Source of the DNA: an uncultured Sporobacter sp.
Lineage (GTDB): Bacteria > Bacillota > Clostridia > Oscillospirales > Oscillospiraceae
Direction: 5' to 3'
DNA: 64,000 nucleotides
NCBI GenBank assembly: GCA_963675425.1
Contig: OY776214.1
Span: 2,316,978-2,380,977, forward strand
The notes under the pieces are model-generated. The model was not told where the DNA came from, ran no database searches, and saw only the letters and a list, made by a program, of their open reading frames with translations. The stretch's first letter is position 1; each line of letters opens with the position of its first letter. Position numbers and translations under genes: made by a program. This document shows positions 7,420 through 23,941 of the stretch, one piece after another.

Positions 7420-7439
7420 TCTTGTTTATTTTTATTTTT

Positions 7440-8976: not shown

Positions 8977-9285
8977 TATTTACGCCGTAAGATTATCACG
9001 TCGCTGTTCTAATAGCAATACCTAAATTAAATAGTTATGCTCGTCTTTTTTTGTTATTATTGTTATTTGTCAAAGGGGATTAGGGTGATGTTTCTTGCAG
9101 AATGCACATGACTTATCGACATACCGAGCTTTACAAACAGAATTTTATGCCGACAGGCAGGCGTTTAAAATTAACTGCAATTAATATTTACGCCGTAAGA
9201 ATATCATGCCTTTTTTCTAATAGCAATACCTTATTTAAAATCATTATGCGAACTTATTTTTGTTATTGTTTTCACTTGTCAAGGG
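8977..9285. promoter_or_regulatory. Duplicated ~105-bp intergenic block (8977-9078 and 9184-9285) with TTAC-N3-GTAA palindromes
   Basis: atatttacgccgtaaga-tatca...tctaatagcaatacct...ttatgc...tgttatt...ttgtcaa-gg occurs twice; third short copy tttacaatgtaagaatat near 9316-9333. Confidence 0.7.
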
Positions 9286-9348
9286 TCATTAAATATGTTA
9301 CTCTGATAATATAAATTTACAATGTAAGAATATAAAGGAGTTGATTAC

Positions 9349-9621
9349 ATGAATTGGGAACAGATCGTTATTTATAAAAAAGATGAGGTTGATGCTTTAT
9401 TAACAGAAAGAGGGATACTTGATGAGGACATAAAAAAAGTAATTTCGCAGGCTATAGAAAGCGGCGAAAAATTATACCAGGAAGAGGAGTACAGATTTCT
9501 GGCTAAAGCCAAGCTGGAGAGGTTTACAGTTTATGTGGAATATTCACCTGAAAATGACGGATTCCGCATCCATACAGGTTATAGCCATCGAGTTGATTTT
9601 AAATCAGAGCATGTAGAATAG
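9349..9621 (+). CDS. Small protein resembling the isolated C-terminal domain of the oxidoreductase/dicluster protein of DVU_155x-type loci
   Basis: LLTERGILDEDIKKVISQAIESGEKL...FTVYVEYSPENDGFRIHTGYSHR; AAGGAG RBS; family resemblance from recall. Confidence 0.65.
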   Translation: MNWEQIVIYKKDEVDALLTERGILDEDIKKVISQAIESGEKLYQEEEYRFLAKAKLERFTVYVEYSPENDGFRIHTGYSHRVDFKSEHVE

Positions 9622-9635
9622 GAGGTGTTTAATAA

Positions 9636-9827
9636 ATGGGTGAATGGTTATGTTCAACTTGTAAAGTAAAAATGGAAGAAGTGGATGATATCCAGATCTT
9701 TTATGGAGAAGTAGACTTGCCGGATGCATTAGGGATCAGATGCCCGAGCTGCGGCCGAGAATATCTATTGGAACAATTTGTGACGGATGAACTCATCGCT
9801 GCTGAAGAAATGCTTGAAGGCAAATAG
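9636..9827 (+). CDS. DVU_1557-family Zn-ribbon redox protein
   Basis: WLCSTCKV...IRCPSCGREYL...AAEEMLEGK; two CxxC pairs; GGAGG RBS. Confidence 0.8.
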   Translation: MGEWLCSTCKVKMEEVDDIQIFYGEVDLPDALGIRCPSCGREYLLEQFVTDELIAAEEMLEGK

Positions 9828-9838
9828 GAGAAACCTGA

Positions 9839-10576
9839 ATGGCGAAGACAGAAAAACCGTTGATTGAAGTATTTGGTCAGCGTCCTGGCCGGTTTAAGTT
9901 AGCGCTGAAGGGCGCTGAAATAGCAGGCATAAACTGCCGAAGTAAAGTTTTGGAAGTTGGCTGTTCTTACGGCGACACCTCGTTTTTGCTGGCGGAGTCC
10001 TTTGACTGTGAAGTAACCGGGATTGATTTAGAGCGTGAGTACATTGTCCAGGCCGCTGCCAGGACAGATCATACCGACCATAAAGTGCAATTTTGCGTTG
10101 CTGATGTGGTAAAAATGCCTTTTATGGATCAAGCGTTTGATTATATATTTTGCGAAGCGGCGTATTCTCTTTTAAAAGATAAAGAAGCTGCCGTAGATGA
10201 ATATCATAGAGTTTTGGGCGAAAAAGGAAAGGTAATTGTTAATGATTTTTATTTAAAAAGACAAGTTTCGGAAAACGTTCAAAAAAAGATGGATTTTATA
10301 CCGTGCTTTTATGGAATAAAAACTGCTGAAGAATATTGTAAGATTTTTAGCGAGAAAGGATTCAGTCAACTGTTGTTTGCTGATTATTCAAGTGAAATTA
10401 TCAGGATTTCAATGTGGCTGAGCAAAGCGTATGGCGTATCTTCCAAAGAATTGAACCGGCTGTTTGTCAAGCTTTTAAGCCAAAATGATGACGATCATTG
10501 TGATTGTTTAAACGACAGCAACGAATTTTTCAAGGAAGCCAGGCTGGGTTACGGCCAATTTATATTCGGAAAATAA
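9839..10576 (+). CDS. Class I SAM-dependent methyltransferase (DVU_1556-like by context)
   Basis: VLEVGCSYGDT motif I, VTGIDL, MPFMDQAFDYIFCE. Confidence 0.85.
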   Translation: MAKTEKPLIEVFGQRPGRFKLALKGAEIAGINCRSKVLEVGCSYGDTSFLLAESFDCEVTGIDLEREYIVQAAARTDHTDHKVQFCVADVVKMPFMDQAFDYIFCEAAYSLLKDKEAAVDEYHRVLGEKGKVIVNDFYLKRQVSENVQKKMDFIPCFYGIKTAEEYCKIFSEKGFSQLLFADYSSEIIRISMWLSKAYGVSSKELNRLFVKLLSQNDDDHCDCLNDSNEFFKEARLGYGQFIFGK

Positions 10577-10595
10577 TGATAAGAAGGGGATTCAA

Positions 10596-11384
10596 ATTAT
10601 TTTTGCAGGTGTAGATATTGGGTCGACAACGGCAAAAGCAGTATTGCTTGATGAGAATGAAGAAATTTTAGCGTCGGCAATTGTTTATACGAGCTTTGAC
10701 CGCAATGAAAGCGGTATGGAAGTATTAAATCTGGCATTGGAAGAATGCGGGAAATCATTAAAAGATGTAGAATATGTGGTTTCAACGGGTTATGGCAGAA
10801 GAGCCCTGAAGATATCCAATGATGCCATACCGGAGATCATTGGCCACGCTTTGGGAACCCAAAAATTATATCCCGGGGTACGGACCATTATTGACATCGG
10901 AGGCCAGGACAGCAAAGTCATCGCGCTTGATGAAAAAGGAATAATCGAAAAATTTGAGATGAATGACAAATGCGCTGCAGGAACAGGCCGCTTTTTTGAA
11001 GTTTTAGCAGGCCGTTTGTTAAATATATCAATGGATGAATTGGGGCCGCTTTATCTAAAAGCTGAAAATCCTTGTACAATCAGCAGTATGTGTACCATTT
11101 TTGCCGAATCGGAGATTATTTCCTACTTGTCGGAAGGTAAGCTCAAAGAAGACATCATTGCAGGAATGATTAATTCCGTAGCCCGCAGGGTGGTGGCCAT
11201 GGGTAAAACCGGGCAGATTCGATATGAAGAGCCGATTATTCTCTCGGGGGGAGTAGCCAAAAACATCGGGGCGGTAAAAGCCTTTTCAGAAATTATCGGC
11301 AAAGAAGTTCAGGCTATTGAAAACCCACAGTTAACGGGGGCAATGGGGGCGGCACTGAAAGCAAAGGACGAATTTACGAAATAG
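10596..11384 (+). CDS. 2-hydroxyacyl-CoA dehydratase/benzoyl-CoA reductase activase (ASKHA ATPase, HgdC/BadF-like)
   Basis: In-frame upstream of the ORF-track start: (I)IFAGVDIGSTTAKAVLL; STGYGR, IDIGGQDSK, MNDKCAAGTGRF, ISSMCTIFAESE, GGVAKN; probable ATT start at 10596. Confidence 0.93.
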   Translation: MIFAGVDIGSTTAKAVLLDENEEILASAIVYTSFDRNESGMEVLNLALEECGKSLKDVEYVVSTGYGRRALKISNDAIPEIIGHALGTQKLYPGVRTIIDIGGQDSKVIALDEKGIIEKFEMNDKCAAGTGRFFEVLAGRLLNISMDELGPLYLKAENPCTISSMCTIFAESEIISYLSEGKLKEDIIAGMINSVARRVVAMGKTGQIRYEEPIILSGGVAKNIGAVKAFSEIIGKEVQAIENPQLTGAMGAALKAKDEFTK

Positions 11385-11398
11385 GAAGGTGAACAAGG

Positions 11399-12793
11399 GT
11401 GAAGGATTTTGACGTGGTTGTAATCGGCGGTGGTTCCGGCGGTTGTGCCGCTGCAAGCAGGTCGGCCGATCTCGGGAAAAAGGTGGCGTTAATCGAAGGC
11501 AGAGGGAAAGAAGGCCTCGGCGGAACATGTATTAATAGGGGCTGTATACCGGCTAAAATACTTTTGGCATCCGCTGAAACGTATTCCGGGGTGCAGAAAG
11601 CCAAAGATTTTGGAATTGGGGTAACAGGCATCTCCTTTGACTATGAAAAAATCGAGCAGAAAAAACAGGCGTCAATCAAAACCTTGCGGTTCGGCTTGCA
11701 GAATTACATTCTTAAACCCAGAGGAATTGAAATTATCACCGGTTTTGGTAAGATAATTGACTCTCATACGGTAGAGGTGCATGACAACGGGCAGACAGAA
11801 CGGGTTCGGGGTGAAAATATAATTATTGCTTCCGGTTCCGAGCCGGCTATGATTCCATCTTTTCATATTGATGGCCATAACGTCATTACCAGTGACGAAG
11901 CTTTAGAGGTTCGGGAGATCCCCCCGAAGATTACAATTATCGGAGCGGGCGCCCTGGGACTTGAGTTTGCGCATTTGTTTTCAACGTTTGGCAGCAAGGT
12001 GACAGTTGTGGAAATGGCGCCTCAGGTCGTGCCGGCTTTGAAGGATAAGGAATTCACCGGTATGGTTCAAAAATACTTGGAGAAGCAGGGAATTACCGTC
12101 AAGACCGGAGTCAAAATCGACGGCGTAGAAGTCGTTGATGCAGGAAAGGTCGTTTCCAGTTTAAGCAACGGTGAGAAAATCGAAAGCAGTAAAGTGCTGG
12201 TCGCCATCGGCCGCAAACTGAATACCGAAAATATGGGGATTTCGGAATCAGGAATAAAAATGGAAAAGGGCTGTATTCTTGTTGATGATGAAATGAGAAC
12301 GAATATCCCTAATGTATTAGCGGTAGGAGATATCGTCCACGGCCCCCAGCTTTCCCATAAAGCGCAACGGGAAGGAATCGTAGCTGCCGAAGTGATTGCA
12401 GGACTGAGTACGAAAATGGATTATGAGGTTATTCCCTGGGCTATTTTTACACAGCCTGAAATTGCAGCGGTAGGGCTGACCAGGGACGAAGCGGAAGAAC
12501 AGGGAATTAAAACTATTGTCGGCTCCATGCCTTTGATGGCGAATGAAAAGGCCAATGTCATGAAAAAAACAACCGGACAGGTTAAAATTGTAGCTCGCGT
12601 AGATAACAAACAGGTAATTGGCGCTCAGATTTTTGCAGCTGAAGCTTCCATTTTAATTGGCGAATTGGCCGTGGCAGTAAAAAACAAAATTTCCATTGAA
12701 GGCTTATCCAACACGGTTCATGTTCATCCGTCCTTGTCCGAAGCGATTATGGAAGCGAGTAAGAGCAGCTTAGGCAAAGCCTTTCACAAATAA
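11399..12793 (+). CDS. lpdA: Dihydrolipoyl dehydrogenase-like flavoprotein disulfide reductase
   Basis: GGGSGG, redox disulfide GGTCINRGCIPAK, GAGALGLE, HVHPSLSE; GTG start. Confidence 0.92.
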   Translation: MKDFDVVVIGGGSGGCAAASRSADLGKKVALIEGRGKEGLGGTCINRGCIPAKILLASAETYSGVQKAKDFGIGVTGISFDYEKIEQKKQASIKTLRFGLQNYILKPRGIEIITGFGKIIDSHTVEVHDNGQTERVRGENIIIASGSEPAMIPSFHIDGHNVITSDEALEVREIPPKITIIGAGALGLEFAHLFSTFGSKVTVVEMAPQVVPALKDKEFTGMVQKYLEKQGITVKTGVKIDGVEVVDAGKVVSSLSNGEKIESSKVLVAIGRKLNTENMGISESGIKMEKGCILVDDEMRTNIPNVLAVGDIVHGPQLSHKAQREGIVAAEVIAGLSTKMDYEVIPWAIFTQPEIAAVGLTRDEAEEQGIKTIVGSMPLMANEKANVMKKTTGQVKIVARVDNKQVIGAQIFAAEASILIGELAVAVKNKISIEGLSNTVHVHPSLSEAIMEASKSSLGKAFHK

Positions 12794-12834
12794 ATTTCAA
12801 CGAAATTATTTACCCCAAAAAGGAGGCTAAAAGA

Positions 12835-13989
12835 ATGGAAAAAACTTTACGAGAATTGGATGAAGCAGCGAAAAAACGCCCCATTCAGCTGAAAGAGGCA
12901 AAGAAACAAGGCAAAAAGGTTATTCAATACACGGGTAATTTTATACCACCGGAAATGATTTATGCGGCAGGAGCGGAGCCGTATCTTATGTGCAGGGGCG
13001 GAGAACCTGAACCGCCGGACGCTGTCCTGGAGTATATGCTGCGTTTTATGAATCCGCTGGCCAGGTCCATGGCCGGTTATCACATGCTGGGCCTTGATCC
13101 TGTAACGCCGATATCTGATCTGATCGTGACCCAGCAGACCGATTGTCATGTAGGCAGGGTGACAGAACTGTTGGAATTTTTAAAACTGCCCATTCATAAA
13201 GTAGGTGTTCCCTCCGACTGGAAAAAAGGATTTACAGCTGAGTATTACTATAAGTCTTTAGATAAATTAAAAAAAAGACTGGAGGATATAACCGGCAATA
13301 GTATCACGAACGACAATCTGAAGAAATATATCGGTTATACCAACCGGATTAATCGAGTATTAAGAAAAATCGACGACCTGCGTAAAAAAGATAATCCGCC
13401 GCTCGGGGAAAACGAATTCATTCACCTCAATCATTATTCTTTGCTGTGCGAGCCTGAATTTGCAGCTGACAAACTGGAAGAACTATATGAAAAGATAAAA
13501 GACGCTCCCGGCAAGTTCCCGGAAAAAGCTCCCAGATTGCTTTTCGCGGGGCATGCCCTGGCAATCGGAGATTACATTGTCCCTAAACTGATCGAGGACT
13601 ATGGCTCCGTGATTGTTACAGAAATGCTTGATGAAGGAATCCGGCCTTTCAAGTTTGATATAGAAACCGAAGGGGATATGCTTCGTAATTTTGGGGAAAC
13701 CATGTTTTTGAAAAAGACACCTATTAATGTGTTCCAGCCTTCCTGGGAAGACAGGTTTGCCTACATGAAGCAGCTCATCAGTGACTATAAGGTAGACGGC
13801 GTAATTTGGTATCAATTATGTTTCGACGAAATTTACGACATGGAGTGTACCTGCCTGGCTAAATGGCTCGGTGAATTGAACATACCGCTTTTAAAACTGG
13901 AATCCTCTTATGAATACTCCAGGGAGGCAATGGGCCCGCTAAAAACAAGAGTTGAGAGTTTTCTCGAATCTATAAAAGGGAGGAAATAG
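12835..13989 (+). CDS. 2-hydroxyacyl-CoA dehydratase-family subunit (beta/HgdB/BcrC-like)
   Basis: IQYTGNFIPPEMIYAAG, LEDITGNSITNDNLKK, DYKVDGVIWYQLCFDE, LKTRVESFLE. Confidence 0.88.
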   Translation: MEKTLRELDEAAKKRPIQLKEAKKQGKKVIQYTGNFIPPEMIYAAGAEPYLMCRGGEPEPPDAVLEYMLRFMNPLARSMAGYHMLGLDPVTPISDLIVTQQTDCHVGRVTELLEFLKLPIHKVGVPSDWKKGFTAEYYYKSLDKLKKRLEDITGNSITNDNLKKYIGYTNRINRVLRKIDDLRKKDNPPLGENEFIHLNHYSLLCEPEFAADKLEELYEKIKDAPGKFPEKAPRLLFAGHALAIGDYIVPKLIEDYGSVIVTEMLDEGIRPFKFDIETEGDMLRNFGETMFLKKTPINVFQPSWEDRFAYMKQLISDYKVDGVIWYQLCFDEIYDMECTCLAKWLGELNIPLLKLESSYEYSREAMGPLKTRVESFLESIKGRK

Positions 13990-13990
13990 C

Positions 13991-15415: not shown

Positions 15416-15425
15416 TATTGAGCGA

Positions 15426-15561
15426 AAGCATAGCCAGTTAATGCTTAGTGTATAATAATTATTGGCCAGAAATAAGGAGGAATAGCGAAACTATTCCTCC
15501 TGTATACGAACTTGTTAATGTTGCCAACGTTTACCTGATACATGCCGGCTAATGGCTGTGC
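15426..15561 (+). other. Structured intergenic segment with a strong hairpin
   Basis: 11-bp perfect stem aggaggaatag/ctattcctcct (15475-15501); 15428-15440 can pair imperfectly with 15550-15561. Confidence 0.45.
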
Positions 15562-15635
15562 TTGCTTTTAGAATAAAATTAAGGTAATGTTTTCTATAGG
15601 GCAGTATCAATAATAATTGGAAGGCGCATGAGGCT

Positions 15636-17057
15636 ATGAATAATAATATTTATAAAGAGTTTTTAATGCTGACCGGTTTTGAAAAAGAAGAAATTGCAGA
15701 GTATTTGCCTGAATGGATAAAAGCCTCAAAAAAATTGGGTATTTCTGAAGAGGATATGAATCATGCTGTTAGAGAATGGCTACCCAAACACTGGAGTATT
15801 AACTTAAGGGGAATTAGGAAATGTATTGGCGCTTATATCAGAGAAGTAATTGAAATAACAAAAATATTTGAATATAAACAAAACGGAATTAAAGTGGTTT
15901 ATGGCTCTTTACCGGCTAATCCGATTAGTTTTCAGGCGATCAAAATAAGCGGCGGAGAAAAGGTTTTTGTGGGTTATCCGGGAATTCACATTGTTACAGT
16001 CTTGGGTTCCTTTTTTCATAAGACCTCGGCGTTTACTGAAAAGACTAATAAATGCATTCTGAATGCCGGTTGTCCTCACTGTGGCCTGACCAAGATGAGA
16101 TTGAGTGCCAAAATGGCGGAAGTAATTCCTTCGCCCGACGCCATTTGGAGCTGGGGATTTAATTGTAACGAAGCACCAAAAATGGATGAGTTTATTCATT
16201 GTTATGCTGATGCAAATTGGAAATCAGTATATTGCAGCCTTCCCCATGATACCTATTTAGGGGAAATAGAAAATGAAAGCCAAGAGAGGGTAAAGTATTT
16301 AGCTTTGCAAATTGAAGACGGGCAGCGGCAAATTGAAAAAATAACCGGGATCAAAGTAAGCGAGCAGCATTTTAACCAGGCCCTGGAGGATGCCGACCGG
16401 TTATTGCAAAAAGTTAATTGTCTCAATGATTTGGTTATTAATGCGGACCCGCAACCCTTAAGCGGCAATGAATTATCCCTTATCGAACAGATGATAACCA
16501 TAGCCTTTAATACCGGTTTAAAATATATGGAAGAGGCTATTGATATCACTATCGAGGAAGTGCGGGATTTAATTGACAGAAAAGAAGGAATTTTGCCGGT
16601 TGGAGCGCCTAAGCTGGGTTGTTATTTTGTCCCCTTCTGCGTGCCATGGGTTAATGGGTTATTCCTGGAAAACGGCGTGAATTTATCTTTTAGCACGTTC
16701 TATACAGCGGCGGATAAATTCCTGGAAAAGTCAAGCTATCAGGACCCATTCAGCATAATTGCTGAACAATGGCTGCAAATGCCGGGCAGTGTCAATATAG
16801 CATACGAAGTGGAACTGAATTGCCGGATACTTAGTAAATATAAGCCTGATGCCATGCTGCTTGGTTTCTACAGCTTTGAAAGATGGGTGGGGGTACATCA
16901 CAAAATAATTGTTAATAAGATTGAAGAAAAAATGAAAATACCTCATTTTTATATAGAAGGGGACATCTGGGAAGACGGGATGTTTCGCCTGGATGATTTA
17001 AGAACAAGGATCGAAACTATTTGCAATTTCTTGAAAATGAATAAAATGATTATTTAG
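15636..17057 (+). CDS. 2-hydroxyacyl-CoA dehydratase-family alpha-like paralog 2
   Basis: Colinear with 13991 protein: CPHCGLTK, GFNCNEAPK, ADPQPLSGNE, EGDIWED, LRTRIETI. Confidence 0.85.
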   Translation: MNNNIYKEFLMLTGFEKEEIAEYLPEWIKASKKLGISEEDMNHAVREWLPKHWSINLRGIRKCIGAYIREVIEITKIFEYKQNGIKVVYGSLPANPISFQAIKISGGEKVFVGYPGIHIVTVLGSFFHKTSAFTEKTNKCILNAGCPHCGLTKMRLSAKMAEVIPSPDAIWSWGFNCNEAPKMDEFIHCYADANWKSVYCSLPHDTYLGEIENESQERVKYLALQIEDGQRQIEKITGIKVSEQHFNQALEDADRLLQKVNCLNDLVINADPQPLSGNELSLIEQMITIAFNTGLKYMEEAIDITIEEVRDLIDRKEGILPVGAPKLGCYFVPFCVPWVNGLFLENGVNLSFSTFYTAADKFLEKSSYQDPFSIIAEQWLQMPGSVNIAYEVELNCRILSKYKPDAMLLGFYSFERWVGVHHKIIVNKIEEKMKIPHFYIEGDIWEDGMFRLDDLRTRIETICNFLKMNKMII

Positions 17058-17080
17058 ACTGTTTATTAGGAGCAGGTTAT

Positions 17081-18511
17081 ATGGGGGCGTTTTATGAAAA
17101 AATTCTTTCTCTTTGCGGCTTTGATCAGCAAGAAATAGCAAAGAATACCGGCAAACTACGCAGGGCTTGCGAAAAATTTGGGATTGATGAAGAACAGGTA
17201 GCCTTTGCTGCAGAGAAGTGGATACCTCAAAATTATGATTTAAAGCTGGAGGGAATAAGGAAACTTATTGGCGTTTATATCCGTGAATTTCTCAGCATTT
17301 TGGACCTGTCTCTGGATAAAAATGATAATCGTAAAATTGTCTACGGGACGGTTCCTTCCCCTGTGCCTCTTTTTCATGCCTTGAAAGACAGCTGCAAGGA
17401 GGGAATATATACTGGTGCCCCGGATTTTGTTTTCATGATCGTGTTAAACAGCTTTTTTCATTGGCGTAATATAGGTTTGGAAAGATTGGAGGAACAAGGA
17501 TTTACTCAAGCTTGCAGGCATTGCGCCCTTAATAAAATGCGGGCATTTATCTATTCCGATAATTATATTCCCAGTCCTGATATCGTCTGGACCTGGGGAA
17601 CTGCTTGTGATGAGGCGCCTAAAACTGAAGAGTTTATCCAATTTTGTTATGGTAAACAGTGGTTTTATGTTTCCACAAAAATGCCGCATGATACCTGCAA
17701 AGATGAACAGGGCGACAAGGAGCGGATAACATATCTGGCCAGGCAAATACAAGACGCCGTTTATACAATTGAACAAAAATGCCGATTAAAACTATCCCAA
17801 GAAGCTGTGAGGAAGGCAATGTATAATTGGGGTAAAATTACGGCCAAGATATATTACCTGAATACTTTGATTGCCAATGCCGACCCGGTCCCACTGGGAG
17901 GTAATGAGCTTTCCCTGATTAATTCATTGCAGCTGGCGCCATTGAATATAGAGGTTGAGCTTATTGAGGAGTCTATTGATATTATCATTAAAGAAGTAAA
18001 GGAACGGATCAGAAACGCAGAGGGAATATTACCACGTGGAGCTCCGAGGTTAGGTTGCTATCTTGTCCCTTTTTGCCTTCCCCATATTGTTAAACATTTT
18101 GAAAGGGCCGGTGTTGCTTTAACATTTAATACTTGTATGATGAGGGCAGGCATTCCGGATAATAAAGTACATGGTAGCTGTAAAGTGAGAGATAATAAAA
18201 CGGTTAAGCATCCTTATGAAATAATAGCCGGACAATGGCTGAGCTTGCCGTTGTTTAATAATGTTTTTTATGAAGCAAAGGCAATTGCTCATTTGCTTGC
18301 CAAGTATAAGAATGATGGTTTGATACTCGGTTTTTTCACATTTGACCGTTGGTTGGGGGCACACCAAAACCTTCTGAAAATCATACTCAAAGAATCAATT
18401 GCGAAACCGGTTTTTATAATGGAAGCAAATTTCTGGGATGAACGGTTTAATAATAAACAAAGAATAATAAATCAAATTGAAAGTATCGGAAGATTATTGG
18501 AGAAAGCGTAA
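17081..18511 (+). CDS. 2-hydroxyacyl-CoA dehydratase-family alpha-like paralog 3
   Basis: CRHCALNK, GTACDEAPK, ADPVPLGGNE, EANFWDER. Confidence 0.83.
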   Translation: MGAFYEKILSLCGFDQQEIAKNTGKLRRACEKFGIDEEQVAFAAEKWIPQNYDLKLEGIRKLIGVYIREFLSILDLSLDKNDNRKIVYGTVPSPVPLFHALKDSCKEGIYTGAPDFVFMIVLNSFFHWRNIGLERLEEQGFTQACRHCALNKMRAFIYSDNYIPSPDIVWTWGTACDEAPKTEEFIQFCYGKQWFYVSTKMPHDTCKDEQGDKERITYLARQIQDAVYTIEQKCRLKLSQEAVRKAMYNWGKITAKIYYLNTLIANADPVPLGGNELSLINSLQLAPLNIEVELIEESIDIIIKEVKERIRNAEGILPRGAPRLGCYLVPFCLPHIVKHFERAGVALTFNTCMMRAGIPDNKVHGSCKVRDNKTVKHPYEIIAGQWLSLPLFNNVFYEAKAIAHLLAKYKNDGLILGFFTFDRWLGAHQNLLKIILKESIAKPVFIMEANFWDERFNNKQRIINQIESIGRLLEKA

Positions 18512-19108
18512 ATGCCAAGAAAAAAAGTGATATTTGAAAAACAGAAAATTATTGATGCTTCTTTTCATATTATTAAAAGTGAGGGCAATGAAGCTTTCTC
18601 GGCCAGAAGATTAGCCACGGAACTAAACATTTCGTCAATGACTGTCTATAATTATTACAAAAACATTGATGAAATAAAAAAAGAAGTTATTATTAGAGGT
18701 TTTAGTATTCTTTACAAGATGATTTTTCGTGATATGGAAAACAAAAAGGAAAAGTTGGATGAAGACGGTATTGGTTGTTTATGCAGAATTATCGCGCTCA
18801 ATATGATGAATTTCGCTTTGGAAAATAAAGAAATATATATTTTGATGTTTACTGAGTACGGTTATAAGTTTAGAAATGATCACGAGATCAGGCTTTTTTA
18901 CAATTTCTTGCCGCAACTAGCCAATAGCATTAAACTTGCTCAATCTGAAGCGCAGGAATTAAAAAAAAGGTGCTATATATTTGAAAGCATGATTCAAAGG
19001 CTAATTATGGAAAAATTAAATAAGCTATATGATTATTCCCTGGAAGAATATAATGATTATATTGATTTTAGTTTAAAGCATTTATTTAGGATCGATTCAG
19101 AAGGATGA
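18512..19108 (+). CDS. TetR/AcrR-family transcriptional regulator
   Basis: N-terminal HTH SARRLATELNISSMTVYNYYKNIDEI; TAA-ATG coupling to the upstream gene. Confidence 0.92.
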   Translation: MPRKKVIFEKQKIIDASFHIIKSEGNEAFSARRLATELNISSMTVYNYYKNIDEIKKEVIIRGFSILYKMIFRDMENKKEKLDEDGIGCLCRIIALNMMNFALENKEIYILMFTEYGYKFRNDHEIRLFYNFLPQLANSIKLAQSEAQELKKRCYIFESMIQRLIMEKLNKLYDYSLEEYNDYIDFSLKHLFRIDSEG

Positions 19109-19117
19109 GGTGGAAAA

Positions 19118-20455
19118 ATGAATAGTATAACTGACACGAAAAGTCTATGTCCGGAATGTCTGAACATAATCCCGGCGCATTATGTTGTTGATAATAATAA
19201 TGTCTATTTACATAAAGAATGTCCTGAACATGGTCCGTATAAAGCCCTGGTATGGAGAGATGCCGAGTTATATGAACAATGGCAATCACAGAGTACCCAT
19301 GCGGAAAAAATGGAAAATGGCATTCCCCCGGTAAAGGGGTGTCCCTTGGACTGCGGCTTGTGTACCGAACATGAGGGAGGGACCTGTACAGCCGTTGTGG
19401 AAGTTACTTATCGCTGCAATATGAATTGTCCCGTTTGTTTTGCGGATAGTGCTCAAGAAATTTTCGAGCCGGACATCGATAAAATCCGGGAGATGTTTGT
19501 TGCTGTCCAGAATGAACAAAACACCCTTTGTTCGGTCCAAATAAGCGGAGGGGAACCAACAGTGAGAGATGATCTGCATGAGATTATCCGGTTGGGGAAA
19601 GAGATGGGGTTCGAGCATATTCAAGTTAATACGAACGGCTTGAGAATAGCGGAAGACTTTAATTATTTGCAGCAGCTTAAAGATAGTGGCGCTGATCTAA
19701 TATATTTGCAGTTTGACGGACTGAATGATGACATCTATCAAGCGCTTCGCGGAAAAAAAATGCTTGATACCAAGTTGAAGGCCATCGAAAACTGCCGGGC
19801 TGTTAATATTGGGGTCCTTTTGGTGCCGACAATTGTTCCCCAAGTTAATTTTTCTGAAATAGGTCGGATTATTAATTTTGCCAGAGAACAAATGCCCATA
19901 GTCAAGGGAATCCACTTTCAGCCTGTAAGTTACTTCGGTCGTTTTCCGGTAAGCAGCCCGCAGGATGAGGATAGAGTCACGCTGGCTGATATTGTCAAAG
20001 GAATCGAAGCGCAGACCCAGGGAGAAATAAAAGTTAGGAACCTTGTTCCCCGTAAAAGGTTCAATTCTCACTGCGCGTTCAGCGGATTGTTTTATTTACA
20101 GGATAATGGGAAGTTTCAGCCTATTACCCAAAACAAAACAGAGGAAGTGCCCGAACCCGAAAAAACGACTCAGGATTTTGTGGCCAAGGCAAATCAGTAC
20201 ACCAAAAACCATTGGCAACTGACAAGCGATCCTCAGAAGGAAAAGCAGACGCCTCAATCCGGAAGCCTGGCGAAAAGAATAAAAGACTATACCCTGTCGC
20301 TAACCGGTATGCCTTTCCAGGACGTTTGGAATATTGATATAGGCAGGCTAAAGGGCTGTTGTGTTCAGGTGGTTGATAATAAGGGACAGCTAATTCCACT
20401 TTGCGCTTTTCATCTGACCAGTACAAAAGGGAAAAGGTTGTATCGCAATGAATAA
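19118..20455 (+). CDS. Radical SAM protein, TrsS/MJ0619(Tes)-like architecture, copy 1
   Basis: N-terminal CPEC...CPEHG, GCPLDCGLC, CNMNCPVC SAM motif, SGGEPT, C-terminal HCAF, GCCVQV, PLCAF. Confidence 0.9.
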   Translation: MNSITDTKSLCPECLNIIPAHYVVDNNNVYLHKECPEHGPYKALVWRDAELYEQWQSQSTHAEKMENGIPPVKGCPLDCGLCTEHEGGTCTAVVEVTYRCNMNCPVCFADSAQEIFEPDIDKIREMFVAVQNEQNTLCSVQISGGEPTVRDDLHEIIRLGKEMGFEHIQVNTNGLRIAEDFNYLQQLKDSGADLIYLQFDGLNDDIYQALRGKKMLDTKLKAIENCRAVNIGVLLVPTIVPQVNFSEIGRIINFAREQMPIVKGIHFQPVSYFGRFPVSSPQDEDRVTLADIVKGIEAQTQGEIKVRNLVPRKRFNSHCAFSGLFYLQDNGKFQPITQNKTEEVPEPEKTTQDFVAKANQYTKNHWQLTSDPQKEKQTPQSGSLAKRIKDYTLSLTGMPFQDVWNIDIGRLKGCCVQVVDNKGQLIPLCAFHLTSTKGKRLYRNE

Positions 20456-21758
20456 ACAACGGGACAGGGCATTTTTAATTAAAGAAACCGTAAGCTTATG
20501 CCCTCGCTGTCTGAAGCGGATCCCGGCCAGAATAGAGGAAGTAAACAGCGAGATATATATGAATAAAAGGTGCCCCGAGCATGGCGAATTTCAAACGGTT
20601 ATCTGGCGGGACAATAAGGAAAACTATCTGCAATGGCTGGAATATGGCGGGGGAGAGTCTTTCCTTTCTTCGGAAATACAATCCGACTCCGGTTCAGGAT
20701 GTCCTCATGACTGCGGGCTGTGTGAAGACCACCGGCAGGAAATTTGTTCAGCAGCAATTATGGTTACCAACCGATGCAATCTTAATTGTCCGGTTTGCTT
20801 TACCCGGAGTCCTGAAGAGCATTATTATGAACCTGATTTAAACAGTATTAGAAGTATGTATGAATTTTACCTAAATTCGTGTGGTGAACCATATCCTGTG
20901 GAATTATGCGGGGGTGAACCTACGGTAAGGGATGACCTGCCGCAAATCATTGCGTTGGGAAAGCAATTGGGTTTTGATTATATCCAGCTCAACACGAATG
21001 GCATTAGAATCGCCCAGGATCAGGAGTATTTACATAAGTTAAAAAATGCCGGATTAACAACCGTATACTTGGGATTAGACGGAATATCGGAAGAGCCTTA
21101 TAAATATTCTTCCGGGTATTATCTGGGAAAAAGCATTCTAAGTTATAAGCTGCAGGCTATTAAAAACTGTGCGGAAGCCGGTTTGGCTGTGATTTTGGTT
21201 CCCTGTGTTATTCCCGGGGTCAATGACAGTCAATTAGGAGAAATTATCCGTCTGGCGAAGAAATGGATGCCGGCGGTTAAAGGCGTTCATTTTCAGCCAA
21301 TCAGCTATTTCGGCAATTATCCTGTCGAGCCTCAAAATAAAGACAGGATTACCATACCGGAAGTTTTACGGGCCATCGAAGAACAAACCGGTGGCGAGGT
21401 AAAACGGGATCATTTTCTGCCGACGGGCTGCGAGCATCCCCAATGTTCCTTTAATGGATTTTTTATGATGGCGAAAAATGGAAAGCTGCAGGCTTTGACC
21501 AAATACCAAAAAAGAGAGCAGCGGGAGAGTGAGCCCGCAAAAAAGACGCGTCGTTTCACCAAAACCCAATGGATATATAATGAGCGGATGTCTTTAACCA
21601 TAGGAGGAATGGCGTTCCAGGATGCCTGGAATGTTGATCTTGAAAGATTAAAGCGGTGTATTATTCATATTATCTGCTCTAATCAAAAATTTGTTCCTTT
21701 ATGCGCCAAGTATCTGACGGGTGAAAATGGGTTAAAAATCTTTCCGGGGATAAGCTGA
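20448..21758 (+). CDS. Radical SAM protein, TrsS/MJ0619(Tes)-like architecture, copy 2
   Basis: CPRC...CPEHG, GCPHDCGLC, CNLNCPVC, GGEPT, GCEHPQCSF, RCIIHI, PLCAK; overlaps copy 1 by 8 nt. Confidence 0.9.
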   Translation: MNKQRDRAFLIKETVSLCPRCLKRIPARIEEVNSEIYMNKRCPEHGEFQTVIWRDNKENYLQWLEYGGGESFLSSEIQSDSGSGCPHDCGLCEDHRQEICSAAIMVTNRCNLNCPVCFTRSPEEHYYEPDLNSIRSMYEFYLNSCGEPYPVELCGGEPTVRDDLPQIIALGKQLGFDYIQLNTNGIRIAQDQEYLHKLKNAGLTTVYLGLDGISEEPYKYSSGYYLGKSILSYKLQAIKNCAEAGLAVILVPCVIPGVNDSQLGEIIRLAKKWMPAVKGVHFQPISYFGNYPVEPQNKDRITIPEVLRAIEEQTGGEVKRDHFLPTGCEHPQCSFNGFFMMAKNGKLQALTKYQKREQRESEPAKKTRRFTKTQWIYNERMSLTIGGMAFQDAWNVDLERLKRCIIHIICSNQKFVPLCAKYLTGENGLKIFPGIS

Positions 21759-21769
21759 GGTATTTATTT

Positions 21770-23134
21770 ATGAATGGCATTGTGAAGATGCAGGACGGCC
21801 TGTTCAGGCTGTGCAGGAACCAGATTACCGAAGAAAAGCAATTCGGGCAGGAAAAAAATCTGACGCCGGACGCTAAAATCACGAATCAAATATTTGAGGA
21901 ATTCCGTTTATATAAATTAAAGAAAACGCTGCAGTACGTTTATGATAAAAGTAAATTTTACCGTGAGCTTTTCGACCGGCATAACATATTACCGGAAGAT
22001 ATTCAGTCTATACAGGACTTAAAAAAGATCCCATTAACGTCCTCCCAGGACCTGGCTGCCAGGGGGTACGACTTTCTATGCCTGTCGCAGGGAGCAATGG
22101 AAAAAGCTGTTACCTTTACCAGTTCGGGGACTGTTGGCCCTCAGAAGAAGATCTTTTTTACCGCAGGTGATCTGGAAAAGATGACAGATTTTATGGGTGT
22201 GGGCATGAATACTGTAACCGGGGCGGATGGTGTTGTCCAGATCCTGCTTCCCAGTGGGCCGGTCATGGGTCAAGCCGATTTGCTGGCCCAGGGAGTTCGG
22301 AAAATGGGAGCGGAAGCTGTTTATACAGGGATGTTTGTTCCCAGCGAAGAGCAGATTCAAGCAATTATTAAGTATGGAAGCACTGTGATTTTTGGCGAAA
22401 CCAGATTGATTTACCGCATAACAAAAGAGATGGAAGATAAGTACGATCTAGCTAAATTGGGCGTTAAGACACTCTTCGTAACAACAAGTCATCTTTCGGA
22501 TGTTATGCGTCAAAATCTTGAAACAGCCTGGAATTGTCAAATAGTGACCCACTATGGTCTGACTGAAATGGGCCTGGGCCTGGCAGTTGATTGTCCTTAT
22601 GGTGAGGGTTACCACACCAACGAGTTAGATGTAATTGCCGAGCTTGTTGATCCGAAAACAGGTGAGGTTTTGCCGGACGGAAAAGAGGGCGAACTGGTAT
22701 TTACGACGATCACCAGGGATGGGATGCCGTTAATCCGTTACCGGACGCATGATATAGCCACGTTAACCTCTCAAACTTGCCCCTGTGGTTCTCATTTAAA
22801 TACAATCAGCCGAATCAACCGCAGGTTGGAATCCATTGTGCAAATAAGCCCGGAATTCAGTATTTATCCCGCTTTATTTGACGATGTTTTGTTTAAACTA
22901 CCCGAGGTAGTAGATTACGAAATTTACCTGGAGAAAAAGGACGGGAAACAAAACCTTATATTTGAAGTGGAGCTTACTGCAGAGAGTGAAAATGTAAAAA
23001 AAGAAATCATACGGCAATTACAGAATAACGAAATTATTATGAAATACTTTGATTTGCCGGTGATAAAAACCGTTCCCCCGGGAGCTTTAAAGGGTGGGGC
23101 ACATTTTAAAAAGATGATTAGAGTTTTACCTTAG
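21770..23134 (+). CDS. AMP-dependent CoA ligase, PaaK/F390-synthetase-like (DVU_1553-like by context)
   Basis: FTSSGTVG P-loop, HYGLTEMG, GELVFTT, PLIRYRTHD. Confidence 0.88.
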   Translation: MNGIVKMQDGLFRLCRNQITEEKQFGQEKNLTPDAKITNQIFEEFRLYKLKKTLQYVYDKSKFYRELFDRHNILPEDIQSIQDLKKIPLTSSQDLAARGYDFLCLSQGAMEKAVTFTSSGTVGPQKKIFFTAGDLEKMTDFMGVGMNTVTGADGVVQILLPSGPVMGQADLLAQGVRKMGAEAVYTGMFVPSEEQIQAIIKYGSTVIFGETRLIYRITKEMEDKYDLAKLGVKTLFVTTSHLSDVMRQNLETAWNCQIVTHYGLTEMGLGLAVDCPYGEGYHTNELDVIAELVDPKTGEVLPDGKEGELVFTTITRDGMPLIRYRTHDIATLTSQTCPCGSHLNTISRINRRLESIVQISPEFSIYPALFDDVLFKLPEVVDYEIYLEKKDGKQNLIFEVELTAESENVKKEIIRQLQNNEIIMKYFDLPVIKTVPPGALKGGAHFKKMIRVLP

Positions 23135-23215: not shown

Positions 23216-23860
23216 ATGGAAAACAAAACATCAGGAATACAAAGCCGGTCCGAGGCGGCGGTTATACCCGCGCCCGAACCCGATCCCAAAAGCATGTTCG
23301 GCGTAGATAAAAACATAAATATGGCGACCATAGACGATTGGCTTGGACGCGGCGACGTTCTTTACAGGGATGTCAGGATGCTGTTTGACCCGGCCGAATA
23401 CGCCACCATCGGCGGCAATCAGGAACTGTCCGAAACGATCACAGGTTTCAAAATCGTTCCCCATCCTTACCTTGCGACGCTTATGAAGCTCCCGGTCAAG
23501 AACGCCTATTTGGGCGATACGCTCTTTACGCTTACGTGGGATAAAAAGGGCGCGATCACGTCGGCGACAGCTAATTACAAGGAATCACTGACTATCCTTG
23601 AGGAGCTCTTCCCCAAAAACAAAAAAATATTCATTATGTGCGGCGGCGGCGGTTATGCCTCCATGACACGGGCGCTCCTGATCCATCTGGGTTGGAACGC
23701 GAACGACCTGTATAATATCGGCGGAAACTGGGCCTATAAAGGCGGTAACGCGCTCAAACTCATCGAGTACCCGGAAGAAACGGGCGGCGACACCCTTTAT
23801 GCGCTTTGGAGGGCCGACTATGCGCTGATCGATTTTACCAGACTTCACAAAGCGGAGTAA
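23216..23860 (+). CDS. Rhodanese-like domain protein
   Basis: YRDVRML, FIMCGGGGYAS active-site loop, YNIGGNWAY. Confidence 0.7.
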   Translation: MENKTSGIQSRSEAAVIPAPEPDPKSMFGVDKNINMATIDDWLGRGDVLYRDVRMLFDPAEYATIGGNQELSETITGFKIVPHPYLATLMKLPVKNAYLGDTLFTLTWDKKGAITSATANYKESLTILEELFPKNKKIFIMCGGGGYASMTRALLIHLGWNANDLYNIGGNWAYKGGNALKLIEYPEETGGDTLYALWRADYALIDFTRLHKAE

Positions 23861-23902: not shown

Positions 23903-23941
23903 AAGTGTGTAAACCGGAAATACGGTTTACACACTTTTTTC
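23903..23941 (+). terminator. Intrinsic terminator
   Basis: aagtgtgtaaaccg-gaaata-cggtttacacactt followed by a T tract. Confidence 0.75.

Follow-up and report, generated by a model that had tools for sequence, protein, structure and literature searches.

A conserved but uncharacterised 13-gene cassette of anaerobes joining a Trs radical SAM module to a predicted ATP-driven iron-sulfur enzyme

The canonical Trs or DVU_1553-1559 neighbourhood (NCBIfam NF045645, NF045646, NF045663-NF045668) has been described only by comparative genomics. In 17 of 20 loci sampled from Bacillota a single TrsS is found together with a Mop aldehyde oxidoreductase, all seven canonical genes are present in 12 of the 20, and in none of them do HGD-D genes occur. 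The latter genes encode enzymes such as the (R)-2-hydroxyacyl-CoA dehydratases with their activators (HadBC/HadI, HgdAB/HgdC; PDB 3O3M), the double-cubane cluster protein DCCP with DCCP-R (PDB 6ENO, 7YYL) and the Bzd-type benzoyl-CoA reductase BzdNO (PDB 8S02). Here, we analyzed a 64,000-nt stretch of DNA from an uncultured Sporobacter sp. (contig OY776214.1, positions 2,316,978 to 2,380,977), in the following referred to as the window, in which both kinds of genes are combined in one co-directional run ending at a strong terminator (Table 1). This gene set probably encodes chemistry that has not yet been described.

The original prediction, that positions 9349-23134 carry a single run in the order small domain, zinc ribbon, methyltransferase, activase, LpdA, beta, three alpha genes, TetR, two radical SAM enzymes and CoA ligase, is confirmed by our analysis, since the 13 open reading frames exist on the plus strand in exactly this order. 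Junctions range from an 8-nt overlap to a spacing of 81 nt, with the sole exception of a 220-nt gap between alpha1 and alpha2. A tblastn search of the window revealed no Mop or XdhC homologue, as predicted, while the NTP transferase and the C-GCAxxG-C-C protein, also claimed to be missing, were not searched for. Two corrections apply. The reading frame of the activase continues further upstream than the listed TTG start, and the gene lacks a canonical start codon in this genome: the GTG start of the closest relative is GGG here, and it is also GGG in four public runs of relatives. Furthermore, a lineage-specific open reading frame and the terminator extend the unit beyond the ligase gene.

Table 1. 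Features of the Trs/HGD-D cassette and its flanks. Positions refer to the 64,000-nt window; bit scores are followed by the model cut-off where one applies.
Position	Strand	Feature	Supporting observations
8634..9348	+	Regulatory region shared with the divergent TRAP operon; direct repeat of roughly 107 nt in two copies (8976-9082, 9184-9291) and three copies of the palindrome TTACRNYGTAA (8980-8990, 9188-9198, 9317-9327), candidate operators of the in-cluster TetR	Palindrome found 3 times in 64 kb, all here, against 0.26 expected; also 23-126 nt upstream of the first cassette gene in eight other cassette loci (L011, L013, L015, L018, L030, L060, L075, L091)
9349..9621	+	Small 90-aa protein without Cys, homologous to the C-terminal domain of the type I flavo/CCG protein; predicted alpha-alpha-beta3 fold, weakly like RelE/HigB2/MqsR	Matches only the C-terminal 83 residues (675-757 of 759) of NF045663, E 7.7e-20; AF2 pLDDT 81; best Foldseek E 0.036, TM 0.57, not significant; fused to DUF7479 in proteins of about 150-169 aa
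9636..9827	+	63-aa zinc-ribbon protein (DUF7479/DVU_1557-like), CxxC...CxxC, C-terminal ...MLEGK-COOH invariant; proposed docking or carrier protein	PF24292, 43.3 bits (27); NCBIfam DVU_1557, 30.8 bits (60); C-terminal Lys in 38 of 38 cassette copies and all 22 canonical copies; first CxxC is CxxD in some members, which points to a metal site
9839..10576	+	Class I SAM methyltransferase, diverged DVU_1556/ArsM-like paralogue; one invariant Cys outside the SAM motif, in FIPCF	Best hit NF045667 (DVU_1556), 117 bits (155); 22% identical to the canonical paralogue of the same genome
10590..11384	+	HgdC/HadI-type ATP-dependent activase; probable start at an ATT codon (10590, 10596 or 10599)	TIGR00241, 226 bits (125); listed TTG start at 10644 would remove the DIGSTT nucleotide-binding motif; upstream frame and orthologues; GGG at 10587-10589 confirmed in four runs
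11399..12793	+	E3-type flavoprotein disulfide reductase (LpdA), motifs GGTCINRGCIP and HVHPSLSE; only E3-like gene in the genome, conserved in the cassette	TIGR01350 (dihydrolipoyl dehydrogenase), 472 bits (409); next-best genomic paralogue 26% identical; motifs invariant in 6 orthologues
12835..13989	+	HGD-D beta subunit (384 aa), closest to DCCP but without invariant Cys, so probably without a cluster	PF06050, 209 bits; NF040772, 193 bits (350); PDB 7YYL/6ENO, 126 bits
13991..15415	+	HGD-D alpha1 (474 aa), extra N-terminal helical domain of about 90 aa, three invariant Cys (C146, C149, C177)	PF06050; alignments; AF2 pLDDT 85; Foldseek HadB TM 0.69/0.81, plus DCCP, BzdO and MbdO
15475..15501	+	Perfect 11-bp hairpin without U-tract in the only long intergenic gap; may be an RNA processing or stability element	
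15636..17057	+	HGD-D alpha2 paralogue (473 aa)	PF06050; clade found only in Trs-linked cassettes (tree), almost always next to the TetR gene
17081..18511	+	HGD-D alpha3 paralogue (476 aa), most divergent, same three Cys kept	PF06050; alignment and tree
18512..19108	+	TetR-family regulator embedded in the operon	PF00440, 23.9 bits (24), borderline; conserved in 23 cassette loci
19118..20455	+	TrsS1, radical SAM enzyme with N-terminal zinc/iron ribbon, CPxDCGxC auxiliary motif, CNMNCPVC and C-terminal GCCV; Cys form, not Sec form	NF045646, 554 bits (490); PDB 7TOL, 301.6 bits over residues 7-311 plus 389-433
20448..21758	+	TrsS2, ancient paralogue overlapping TrsS1 by 8 nt; lacks an insertion of about 25 aa; auxiliary motif lost in some orthologues	NF045646, 513 bits (490); orthology pattern
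21770..23134	+	DVU_1553-family, PaaK/LuxE-like adenylate-forming ligase; C-terminal catalytic Lys motif present	NF045666, 340 bits (300); PF04443 LuxE, 27 bits (24.9)
23216..23860	+	214-aa ORF found only in Sporobacter relatives; membership of the system uncertain	Very weak rhodanese-like signal (CGGGGYAS), E 0.13, below cut-off
23903..23936	+	Intrinsic-terminator-like hairpin (14-bp stem plus T-run) closing the operon	

It had been put forward that the Trs module is redeployed here, without its molybdoenzyme, alongside an ATP-dependent one-electron dehydratase/reductase set, and this interpretation is supported. Three conditions under which it would have had to be abandoned were formulated in advance and each was examined. 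With regard to the first, lack of synteny elsewhere, HGD-D and Trs genes proved to be syntenic in 26 further loci representing about 18 distinct lineages and two phyla, among them Sporobacter, Anaeromicrobium, Cuneatibacter, a spirochaete as well as gut and sediment metagenomes. In these loci, the 12 cassette families recur beside the beta/alpha1 pair in rearranged orders and orientations. Second, the reading frames might not have matched the DVU_155x families. In fact, both TrsS copies and the ligase exceed the curated cut-offs, while the methyltransferase and the zinc ribbon have these families as best hits but score below cut-off. Third, the missing Mop and XdhC genes might have been co-regulated elsewhere in the genome. 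Such genes are indeed present, but they reside about 0.93 Mb away inside their own complete canonical Trs locus. Furthermore, Anaeromicrobium sediminis carries the HGD-D-linked cassette with the tandem TrsS pair but neither a canonical TrsS nor a Mop enzyme above cut-off, and the module in the window is therefore not borrowing these components. The canonical context as originally stated, with Mop, XdhC and the further genes, also proved correct. The terms hybrid and fused nevertheless understate the case, because this is an old, self-standing cassette with its own diverged paralogues, and the designation 2-hydroxyacyl-CoA dehydratase/aryl-CoA reductase holds only at superfamily level. Whether the system builds a cofactor or tailors a substrate, the alternative originally offered, was not tested. 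The cassette is rare and patchy, being present in 1 of 399 Clostridia species.

The possibility that a Trs module and an HGD-D module merely lie side by side appears very unlikely. It is true that beta-alpha1-activase trios exist without any Trs gene in at least seven long loci and that Trs modules exist without HGD-D in 20 of 20 canonical loci. On the other hand, the two gene sets are interleaved here, with Trs parts at both ends, they stay together through many rearrangements in the 26 loci, and the alpha2 and alpha3 clades as well as the tandem TrsS pair occur only in the joint cassette. This reading is contradicted by the synteny data, and protein identities of 50-60% exclude that the shared loci are one recently spread mobile element.

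Compared with the canonical neighbourhood, here termed type I, the cassette (type II) shares TrsS, the DVU_1553 ligase, a DVU_1556-like methyltransferase, a DUF7479 zinc ribbon ending in Lys, the small domain with its predicted, weakly RelE-like fold and a flavoprotein of the disulfide-reductase type. It lacks the Mop aldehyde oxidoreductase and XdhC, its flavoprotein is an E3 rather than the GltD/CCG fusion, its small domain is free-standing, and an activase, four HGD-D proteins and a TetR regulator are added. Its components are only 22-38% identical to the canonical paralogues of the same genome. TrsS is duplicated into an old pair: TrsS1 and TrsS2 are each 46-59% identical to their own orthologues but only about 38-41% identical to each other and to the canonical TrsS.

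The HGD-D part resembles the 2-hydroxyacyl-CoA dehydratases in that an alpha/beta pair is combined with one HgdC-type ATPase, the alpha1 model superposes on HadB, and alpha possesses three Cys for a cluster with an open site. It differs from them by a beta subunit devoid of Cys ligands, by the additional N-terminal domain of alpha, by three alpha paralogues for one beta, by very low equivalog scores (36-50 bits against cut-offs of 700-750) and by the absence of a CoA-transferase and a 2-hydroxyacid dehydrogenase. DCCP and benzoyl-CoA reductase provide the best sequence matches of beta (53 bits to BzdN, with DCCP scoring higher) and follow the same logic of ATP-driven electron injection. However, the 7-Cys double-cubane motif is absent, and there is only one ATPase gene, whereas benzoyl-CoA reductase needs two different ones.

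The TrsS enzymes are close to the archaeal tetraether lipid synthase GDGT-MAS/Tes (PDB 7TOL), with which TrsS1 aligns over the N-terminal ribbon, the auxiliary CPxDCGxC motif, the radical SAM core and the C-terminal MxFxD...CC motif. The context here is, however, that of a bacterial soluble pathway and a tandem heterologous pair. The similarity bears the possibility of membrane-lipid remodelling, in which the Tes-like enzymes would couple or cyclise alkyl chains, the ligase would activate a fatty acid, the methyltransferase would add branches and the HGD-D/activase enzyme would act on lipid esters as plasmalogen synthase PlsAR does. HGD-D/activase homologues (PlsA/PlsR, Ger) make ether lipids in anaerobes, TrsS1 is very close to GDGT-MAS over 305 residues, the Tes model scores 375 and 369 bits, and the ligase has a LuxE-type hit. 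Nevertheless, this reading is considered improbable. Both TrsS copies stay below the Tes cut-off of 450, and the region between residues 312 and 388, where the two proteins do not align, is about 40 residues shorter than the matching region of GDGT-MAS and unrelated to it. The cassette is patchily distributed, carries a TetR gene and uptake transporters and is devoid of glycerol-phosphate or acyltransferase genes. In addition, type I pairs with a soluble aldehyde oxidoreductase.

We regard it as shown that the stretch is a complete copy of a conserved, horizontally mobile and autonomous cassette, a second type of Trs system, the core of which is a diverged paralogue set of the canonical module and in which an ATP-dependent HGD-D enzyme occupies the slot held by Mop plus XdhC in type I, with a TetR gene inside the operon and a conserved palindrome in front of it. 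The mechanism, in contrast, is inferred and put forward only tentatively, as our best guess. In this view, an imported organic acid, possibly aromatic, would be adenylated by the ligase and converted to a thioester. The activase would then use ATP to inject one electron into the single [4Fe-4S] cluster of an alpha/beta pair, which would perform ketyl-radical dehydration, dehydroxylation or reduction, the alpha paralogues giving alternative specificities. The TrsS pair would abstract H from an unactivated carbon and, as in GDGT-MAS, form a C-C or C-S bond through an auxiliary cluster, the methyltransferase would cap the product, and the E3-like enzyme, docked through the unit of small domain and zinc ribbon, would recycle a dithiol with NAD(P)H.

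This proposal is in line with genes for uptake-type transporters of five families (TRAP, MFS, DASS, SSS and ABC) beside or inside the cassette. A CoA-ester context is suggested by genes for acyl-CoA dehydrogenase, EtfAB and FixC next to activase-beta-alpha in two of the loci (L119 and L120) and by a Sir2 gene next to the ligase gene in several loci. On the other hand, no experiment and no transcript data are available. The public runs found look like DNA assemblies. SAM-consuming radical enzymes and a methyltransferase are unusual in bulk catabolism. Beta lacks every Fe-S ligand known in HAD, BCR and DCCP enzymes, such that the path of the electron to alpha is unexplained. The substrate is not known, the flanking genes differ between lineages, and the cassette contains neither of the two accessory dehydratase-pathway genes mentioned above. 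The invariant C-terminal Lys of the zinc ribbon as well as NifS and SufBC genes inside some cassettes are better explained by an alternative.

In this alternative, which we consider possible but less likely, the zinc-ribbon protein would be a LysW- or lipoyl-domain-like carrier. The ligase would load an acyl group on the terminal Lys or on a thiol arm built there, the TrsS enzymes would insert sulfur or cross-link it as LipA and GDGT-MAS do, the methyltransferase would tailor it, and the disulfide reductase (E3 here, CCG flavoprotein in type I) would cycle the resulting dithiol. Mop in type I or the HGD-D enzyme in type II would then use the arm as electron or acyl carrier. Besides the conservation of the terminal Lys, the E-x-K motif is kept in remote members of the zinc-ribbon family, which is tiny, with 80 representatives among 1.84 billion proteins. 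The zinc ribbon is fused to the small domain in about 18 representative clusters, and in type I the same small domain is fused to the flavoprotein. Two unrelated disulfide-reductase types, recognized by the E3 motifs and by a CCG domain, respectively, occupy the same slot in the two Trs types. The ligase passes the Pfam cut-off for LuxE (acyl-protein synthetase), a NifS gene (593 bits against 531) directly precedes the TrsS pair in L120, SufC/SufBD genes lie inside another cassette locus (L012), and the Sir2 lysine deacylase is present in several cassettes. However, no modification has been observed, the ligase is closest to CoA ligases of the PaaK type, acyl-CoA dehydrogenase/Etf in L120 points to CoA esters, NifS and Suf may only serve the heavy Fe-S demand, Sir2 commonly regulates acyl-CoA synthetases, and a peptidase or transferase typical of cofactor release is absent. 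The resemblance to LysW amino-group carrier and lipoyl-lysine/E3 systems is an analogy: a very small zinc-ribbon protein with a conserved C-terminal tail residue is encoded in one operon with an ATP-dependent ligase and, in type II, an E3-type disulfide reductase, but the tail ends in Lys, not Glu, and the ligase belongs to the ANL/PaaK superfamily, not to ATP-grasp or LplA.

Finally, the cassette could handle an arsenic-, selenium- or tellurium-type compound or an organosulfur compound by radical SAM C-X bond formation, ArsM-like methylation, MerA/E3-like reduction and strongly reducing HGD-D chemistry. After DVU_1556, the next-best hits of the methyltransferase are ArsM families, TrsS is named a (seleno)protein family, the E3 also scores 331 bits on MerA, and double-cubane relatives of beta have been linked by comparative genomics to selenium use. 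In addition, DUF5714 proteins that follow the ligase in seven loci match the metal-binding double selenoprotein MbdU, and in two loci they sit next to a CobW metallochaperone. This possibility is nevertheless judged unlikely. The proteins encoded here are Cys forms, no in-frame UGA was seen, the methyltransferase keeps only one conserved Cys and not the ArsM set, beta lacks the double-cubane Cys motif, arsenic, mercury or selenium transport or resistance genes are absent from the cassette, and the adjacent transporters are of the organic-anion type.

The + strand of window 9349-23134 carries 13 ORFs, and they follow the order that had been given in the original prediction, whose observation therefore holds. 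Scans against NCBIfam and Pfam identified the ORFs as listed in the table below, which also contains the neighboring elements considered in this work.

Coordinates and identification of the features in and around the cassette and of related loci in the same genome
Coordinates	Strand	Identification	Score / cut-off (bits unless stated)
window 3147-8633	-	Divergent operon for a TRAP transporter (DctP/Q/M) and two arylformamidase-like cyclases	cyclases 123 and 103 / 223
window 9102-9314		70-aa ORF inside the repeat-bearing regulatory region, no family hit	
window 9349-9621	+	90-aa protein matching only the last 83 positions of the 759-position model NF045663	E 7.7e-20
window 9636-9827	+	63-aa DUF7479 zinc ribbon	Pfam 43.3 / 27; NCBIfam DVU_1557 30.8 / 60
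window 9839-10576	+	Class I methyltransferase, best hit DVU_1556	117 / 155
window 10587-10599		Region of the probable activase start; GGG where the closest relative has GTG, candidate ATT start at 10590-10599	
window 10644-11384	+	HgdC-type activase (TIGR00241), as listed from TTG 10644	226 / 125
window 11399-12793	+	Dihydrolipoyl dehydrogenase, E3 (TIGR01350)	471.8 / 408.8
window 12835-18511	+	Four HGD-D proteins: one 384-aa beta and three alpha of about 475 aa	PF06050
window 15475-15501		Perfect 11-bp hairpin (AGGAGGAAUAG/CUAUUCCUCCU) without a U-tract	
window 18512-19108	+	TetR	23.9 / 24 (borderline)
window 19118-20455, 20448-21758	+	Two TrsS radical SAM proteins (NF045646)	553.6 and 512.9 / 490
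window 21770-23134	+	DVU_1553-family ligase (NF045666)	340.3 / 300
window 23216-23860		214-aa ORF, present only in Sporobacter relatives	rhodanese-like signal, E 0.13
window 23903-23936		Strong terminator-like hairpin	
C1:1387825-1389123		Third TrsS of the genome	
C1:1382000-1395000 (loci L009/L010)		Complete canonical Trs locus of the same genome	
C1:1191781-1194000		Second Mop paralogue of the same genome, 71% identical	

The gaps between the genes range from an 8-nt overlap to 81 nt, the single exception being 220 nt between alpha1 and alpha2. This gap contains the 11-bp hairpin and has a fold z-score of -2.0. An Rfam search of positions 8600-24100 returned no RNA family. As listed, the activase lacks its DIGSTT motif, and no ATG, GTG or TTG start would preserve it. 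The frame stays open upstream, and the GTG used by the closest relative (locus L011; L numbers denote the loci retrieved for comparison) reads GGG here as well as in four public runs of related strains. An ATT start behind the ribosome-binding site AAGAAGGGG is therefore likely, although a weakly translated gene is also conceivable.

Whether the ORFs would indeed hit the DVU_155x families had been put forward as a critical point beforehand. Both radical SAM proteins and the ligase exceed the curated cut-offs and are thus members of the Trs families. The methyltransferase and the DVU_1557-like redox protein have these families as their best hits but stay below the cut-offs, while the canonical paralogues encoded in the same genome pass with 158 and 90.3 bits, respectively. 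These two proteins and the small 90-aa protein are diverged relatives. The window's components are only 22-38% identical to the canonical paralogues of the same genome. The neighborhood that defines the canonical system, i.e. the Mop aldehyde oxidoreductase (NF045668), the XdhC-related factor (NF045664) and the full-length flavo/dicluster protein (NF045663), is absent: no Mop or XdhC homologue lies in the window and only the C-terminal domain of NF045663 is present.

The original prediction had also stated that Trs genes normally travel with a molybdopterin aldehyde oxidoreductase, and this is verified by our data. The third TrsS of the genome is located next to the Mop aldehyde oxidoreductase, the full-length flavo/dicluster protein (661 bits), a bona fide DVU_1557, a DVU_1556 methyltransferase, a DVU_1553 ligase (458 bits) and the XdhC-related factor (381 bits). 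In a phylum-wide sample, 28 of 401 genomes have a TrsS above the cut-off, and only the genome studied here has a tandem pair. Of the 20 loci that we retrieved from this set, 12 show all seven canonical genes in the order Mop, dicluster protein, DVU_1557, methyltransferase, TrsS, ligase, XdhC, 17 have Mop, and none has a gene for an HGD-D protein, an activase or an E3 within 10 kb.

Synteny of HGD-D and Trs genes in other genomes had been named in advance as a further test, just as had the possibility that the missing Mop and XdhC genes are co-regulated elsewhere in this genome. Homologues of alpha1 with at least 50% identity number over 100 protein clusters. Gene contexts were taken from named genomes, i.e. 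a Sporobacter MAG, Anaeromicrobium sediminis, Cuneatibacter sp. and a Pleomorphochaeta MAG (Spirochaetota), and from 80 metagenome loci, and were analyzed by tblastn and ORF clustering. Several seemingly conserved long ORFs in this clustering were antisense artefacts of high-GC loci and were discarded. In 26 loci TrsS genes are found next to beta/alpha1, and 12 shorter contigs show the small protein or the zinc ribbon next to beta/alpha1. Complete sets contain the small protein, zinc ribbon, methyltransferase, activase, E3, beta, alpha1, alpha2, TetR, TrsS1, TrsS2 and ligase and occur in several different orders and in divergent orientations, for example in L044, L047, L052, L058 and L075. The view that two unrelated modules lie side by side merely by chance is contradicted by this synteny and is very unlikely. 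The A. sediminis genome has only the tandem TrsS pair and no Mop above the cut-off, and the cassette therefore does not depend on a canonical Trs/Mop locus. The interpretation that a Trs module is here combined with an ATP-dependent HGD-D system in the absence of the molybdoenzyme is thus supported. The cassette is rare. A search of genome contigs with alpha1 alone returned only the 97% identical Sporobacter MAG, and in a class-wide sample just 1 of 399 Clostridia species has an alpha1 homologue.

TrsS1 and TrsS2 each form an orthologous group with 46-59% identity within a group but are only about 38-41% identical to each other, so the duplication is old. In a tree of 139 alpha-type sequences the alpha2 and alpha3 clades are found only in Trs-linked loci, while alpha1 splits into a mostly Trs-linked clade of 59 and a clade of 30. 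The latter comes almost entirely from short contigs or from beta-alpha1-activase trios without Trs genes nearby. Such trios occur in other catabolic-looking contexts, with UbiD, ligases and GlcDEF-like flavoproteins. In L017 and L095 the trio is followed by a GlcDEF-like set (FAD_binding_4, CCG, FAD_binding_4), to which L017 adds UbiD, an AMP ligase and a molybdopterin enzyme and L095 a RACo corrinoid activator and a methyltransferase.

With an alpha/beta pair and an HgdC/HadI-type activase, the cassette contains the basic equipment of a 2-hydroxyacyl-CoA dehydratase of the HadBC/HgdAB type. The HGD-D proteins belong to the HGD-D superfamily but fail every family-level criterion, i.e. those for HAD, BCR and double-cubane proteins. 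The HadB and HadC models score 36-50 bits against cut-offs of 700-750, and the BzdN, BzdO, BcrB and BcrC models of class I benzoyl-CoA reductases (BcrABCD/BzdNOPQ) score 16-51 bits against cut-offs above 420; the two different ATPase subunits and the double-cubane-bearing N/O pair of those reductases are likewise lacking, as there is a single activase gene and the 7-Cys double-cubane motif is absent. By sequence, the best structural relatives of beta are DCCP (126 bits) and BzdN. On the double-cubane cluster protein model NF040772, however, 192.8 bits were reached where 350 are required, and the 7-Cys motif CX19CX18-19CX29CX166-170CX32-34CX32C is absent. In fact, seven orthologues of beta share no invariant cysteine. 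The alpha paralogues share three, C-x2-C plus the C in NCDEGPKTD, and carry an extra N-terminal helical domain. The AlphaFold model of alpha1 (pLDDT 85) matches HadB (TM 0.69/0.81), DCCP, BzdO and MbdO. We infer, from sequence only, a single [4Fe-4S] cluster with an open site in each alpha and none in beta, in contrast to the cluster with three Cys ligands in each subunit of the HadBC/HgdAB type. This wiring is not described for HAD, BCR or DCCP enzymes and would extend what is known of how the superfamily is wired.

TrsS1 aligns to GDGT-MAS (PDB 7TOL) at 301.6 bits over residues 7-311, plus the C-terminal MxFxD...CC motif within residues 389-433, while the middle region differs. On the tetraether lipid synthase model Tes (NF045702) the two TrsS proteins score 374.7 and 368.5 bits, below the cut-off of 450, and the full-length lipid-binding architecture is not present. 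Membrane-lipid remodelling is accordingly regarded as a very unlikely function. TrsS2 has lost the CPxDCGxC motif in some lineages. Both copies are Cys forms, and no Sec position was located in the one TrsS hit flagged with a TGA (G684), which has no in-frame stop inside the gene. A role in metalloid, selenium or sulfur chemistry is likewise considered unlikely.

The E3 fulfills the criteria for a dihydrolipoyl dehydrogenase, as GGTCxNRGCIP with the redox-active CxxxxC and the His-Glu dyad are kept in all cassette orthologues, and it is the only E3-like gene in the genome. No lipoylated partner lies in the cassette. The genome has three Biotin_lipoyl-domain hits in open frames of 138, 234 and 549 aa, which were not characterized, and GcvH was not searched for, such that these data do not settle whether the enzyme serves an E2 or H protein.

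The small protein is modeled (pLDDT 81) as an alpha-alpha-beta3 fold with only weak RelE/HigB2/MqsR resemblance. With a best E value of 0.036 the structural matches are not significant, and a toxin-antitoxin relationship is not claimed. The zinc ribbon ends in ...MLEGK in 38 of 38 cassette copies and in ...(L/M)EDK in all 22 canonical copies, always with Lys as the last residue. In several members the first CxxC is CxxD, which favors a metal site over a redox disulfide. A profile search of 1.84 billion representatives found only 80 family members. In about 18 of these, proteins of 150-169 aa, the predicted RelE-fold domain is fused in front of the zinc ribbon; one of them, P0130, is 42% identical to the window's small protein over 90 residues (E 7e-25). 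In type I, the canonical system, the same small domain is fused to the C-terminus of the flavoprotein, which carries a CCG domain (46.7 bits). Both Trs types therefore combine a disulfide-reductase-type flavoprotein, the predicted RelE-fold domain and the Lys-tailed zinc ribbon. The similarity to LysW-type carrier proteins is an analogy only, because the tail ends in Lys rather than Glu and the ligase is of the ANL/PaaK type and not an ATP-grasp enzyme.

The 715-bp region upstream of the cassette holds two copies of a roughly 107-nt repeat and three copies of the palindrome TTACRNYGTAA, the only three in the 64-kb window, against 0.26 expected. Twelve of the 13 exact matches in about 1 Mb of related loci lie 23-405 nt upstream of the first cassette gene, most of them within 126 nt, and this holds in eight different loci. 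Together with the embedded and conserved TetR gene, this argues for one regulated unit. Transcript data were not found, the public runs that contain the stretch appearing to be DNA assemblies of this organism and its relatives. The same regulatory region is shared with the divergent TRAP transporter operon, which is not found next to the cassette in other lineages.

These carry other transporters beside or inside the cassette, all of uptake type, namely MFS, a DASS/CitMHS anion symporter, an SSS with its small subunit and an ABC system with a binding protein. Accessory genes have been recruited in some lineages. In L044, L047-L049, L052, L058, L062 and L075 a Sir2-family deacylase gene is located next to or near the ligase, in most of them between TrsS1 and the ligase. 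L052 and L027 carry a CobW-type GTPase directly before a DUF5714 (MbdU-like, metal-binding) protein, and SufC/SufBD were also encountered. In the variant L119/L120 (10001-10489 and flanks) the predicted RelE-fold domain and the zinc ribbon form one 162-aa protein, NifS (593 bits against 531) directly precedes TrsS1/TrsS2, and acyl-CoA dehydrogenase, EtfAB, FixC, UbiX and an LpdD-type chaperone lie before activase-beta-alpha, while an E3 and a recognizable methyltransferase are lacking. The acyl-CoA dehydrogenase/Etf set and the PaaK-type ligase favor CoA-ester chemistry on an imported, perhaps aromatic, acid. The sulfur-mobilizing genes, the two kinds of disulfide reductase and the Lys-tailed carrier-like protein, on the other hand, favor a tethered thiol-bearing group.

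Our analysis shows that the genes constitute one functional, autonomous system, here termed type II Trs, and we are highly confident of this. The mechanism, in contrast, is inferred and put forward only tentatively: an acid would be imported and activated to a thioester, an alpha/beta pair would perform ATP-driven single-electron chemistry, the TrsS pair would carry out radical SAM C-H functionalization, forming a C-C or C-S bond as GDGT-MAS does, the product would be methylated and the E3 would recycle a dithiol. A protein-tethered prosthetic arm on the lysine of the zinc ribbon is a more doubtful alternative. In its most far-reaching form, which we consider unlikely but which is not excluded, the Trs core would both build and use such an arm. 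The 63-aa zinc-ribbon protein, docked on the predicted RelE-fold domain, would carry an acyl group on its invariant terminal lysine that is installed by the PaaK/LuxE-like ligase, thiolated or cross-linked by the GDGT-MAS-like TrsS enzymes, tailored by the methyltransferase and cycled by a dedicated disulfide reductase, E3 in this cassette and the CCG flavoprotein in type I. The arm would then shuttle electrons or acyl groups to a partner enzyme, either the Mop aldehyde oxidoreductase or, here, an ATP-driven HGD-D radical enzyme. In effect, this would be a lipoyl-like cofactor system that nobody has described.

The cassette locks together, in one conserved operon without a known substrate, GDGT-MAS-like radical SAM enzymes (C-C bonds at unactivated carbons), ATP-driven HGD-D iron-sulfur enzymes (ketyl or Birch-type reductions) and an E3 disulfide reductase, i.e. 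families known for very difficult chemistry. It occurs in human-gut, animal-gut, fermenter and sediment anaerobes, so its product or substrate is likely to matter for anaerobic carbon turnover or gut metabolite transformation. We found no published description of the HGD-D-linked type, although the paper that named TrsS (Haft and Tolstoy 2025, mSystems) is not covered by this statement, and literature searches for the DVU locus tags and for DUF5714, DUF7479 or PF23545 yielded nothing useful. The cassette also gives a handle on the canonical Trs system, from which it differs by its HGD-D enzyme in place of Mop and XdhC and which is present in about 7% of sampled Bacillota species and is equally uncharacterized. 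Comparison of the two types isolates an invariant core consisting of TrsS, the ligase, the methyltransferase, the Lys-tailed zinc ribbon, the predicted RelE-fold domain and a disulfide reductase, and shows that the Mo enzyme and the HGD-D enzyme are exchangeable partners.

Two further ORFs were set aside. The 70-aa ORF upstream of the cassette is probably not a gene and was rejected as such. The 214-aa ORF between the ligase and the terminator is not a DUF5714 protein, although such proteins take this position in other lineages, and its very weak rhodanese-like signal rests on the loop CGGGGYAS.
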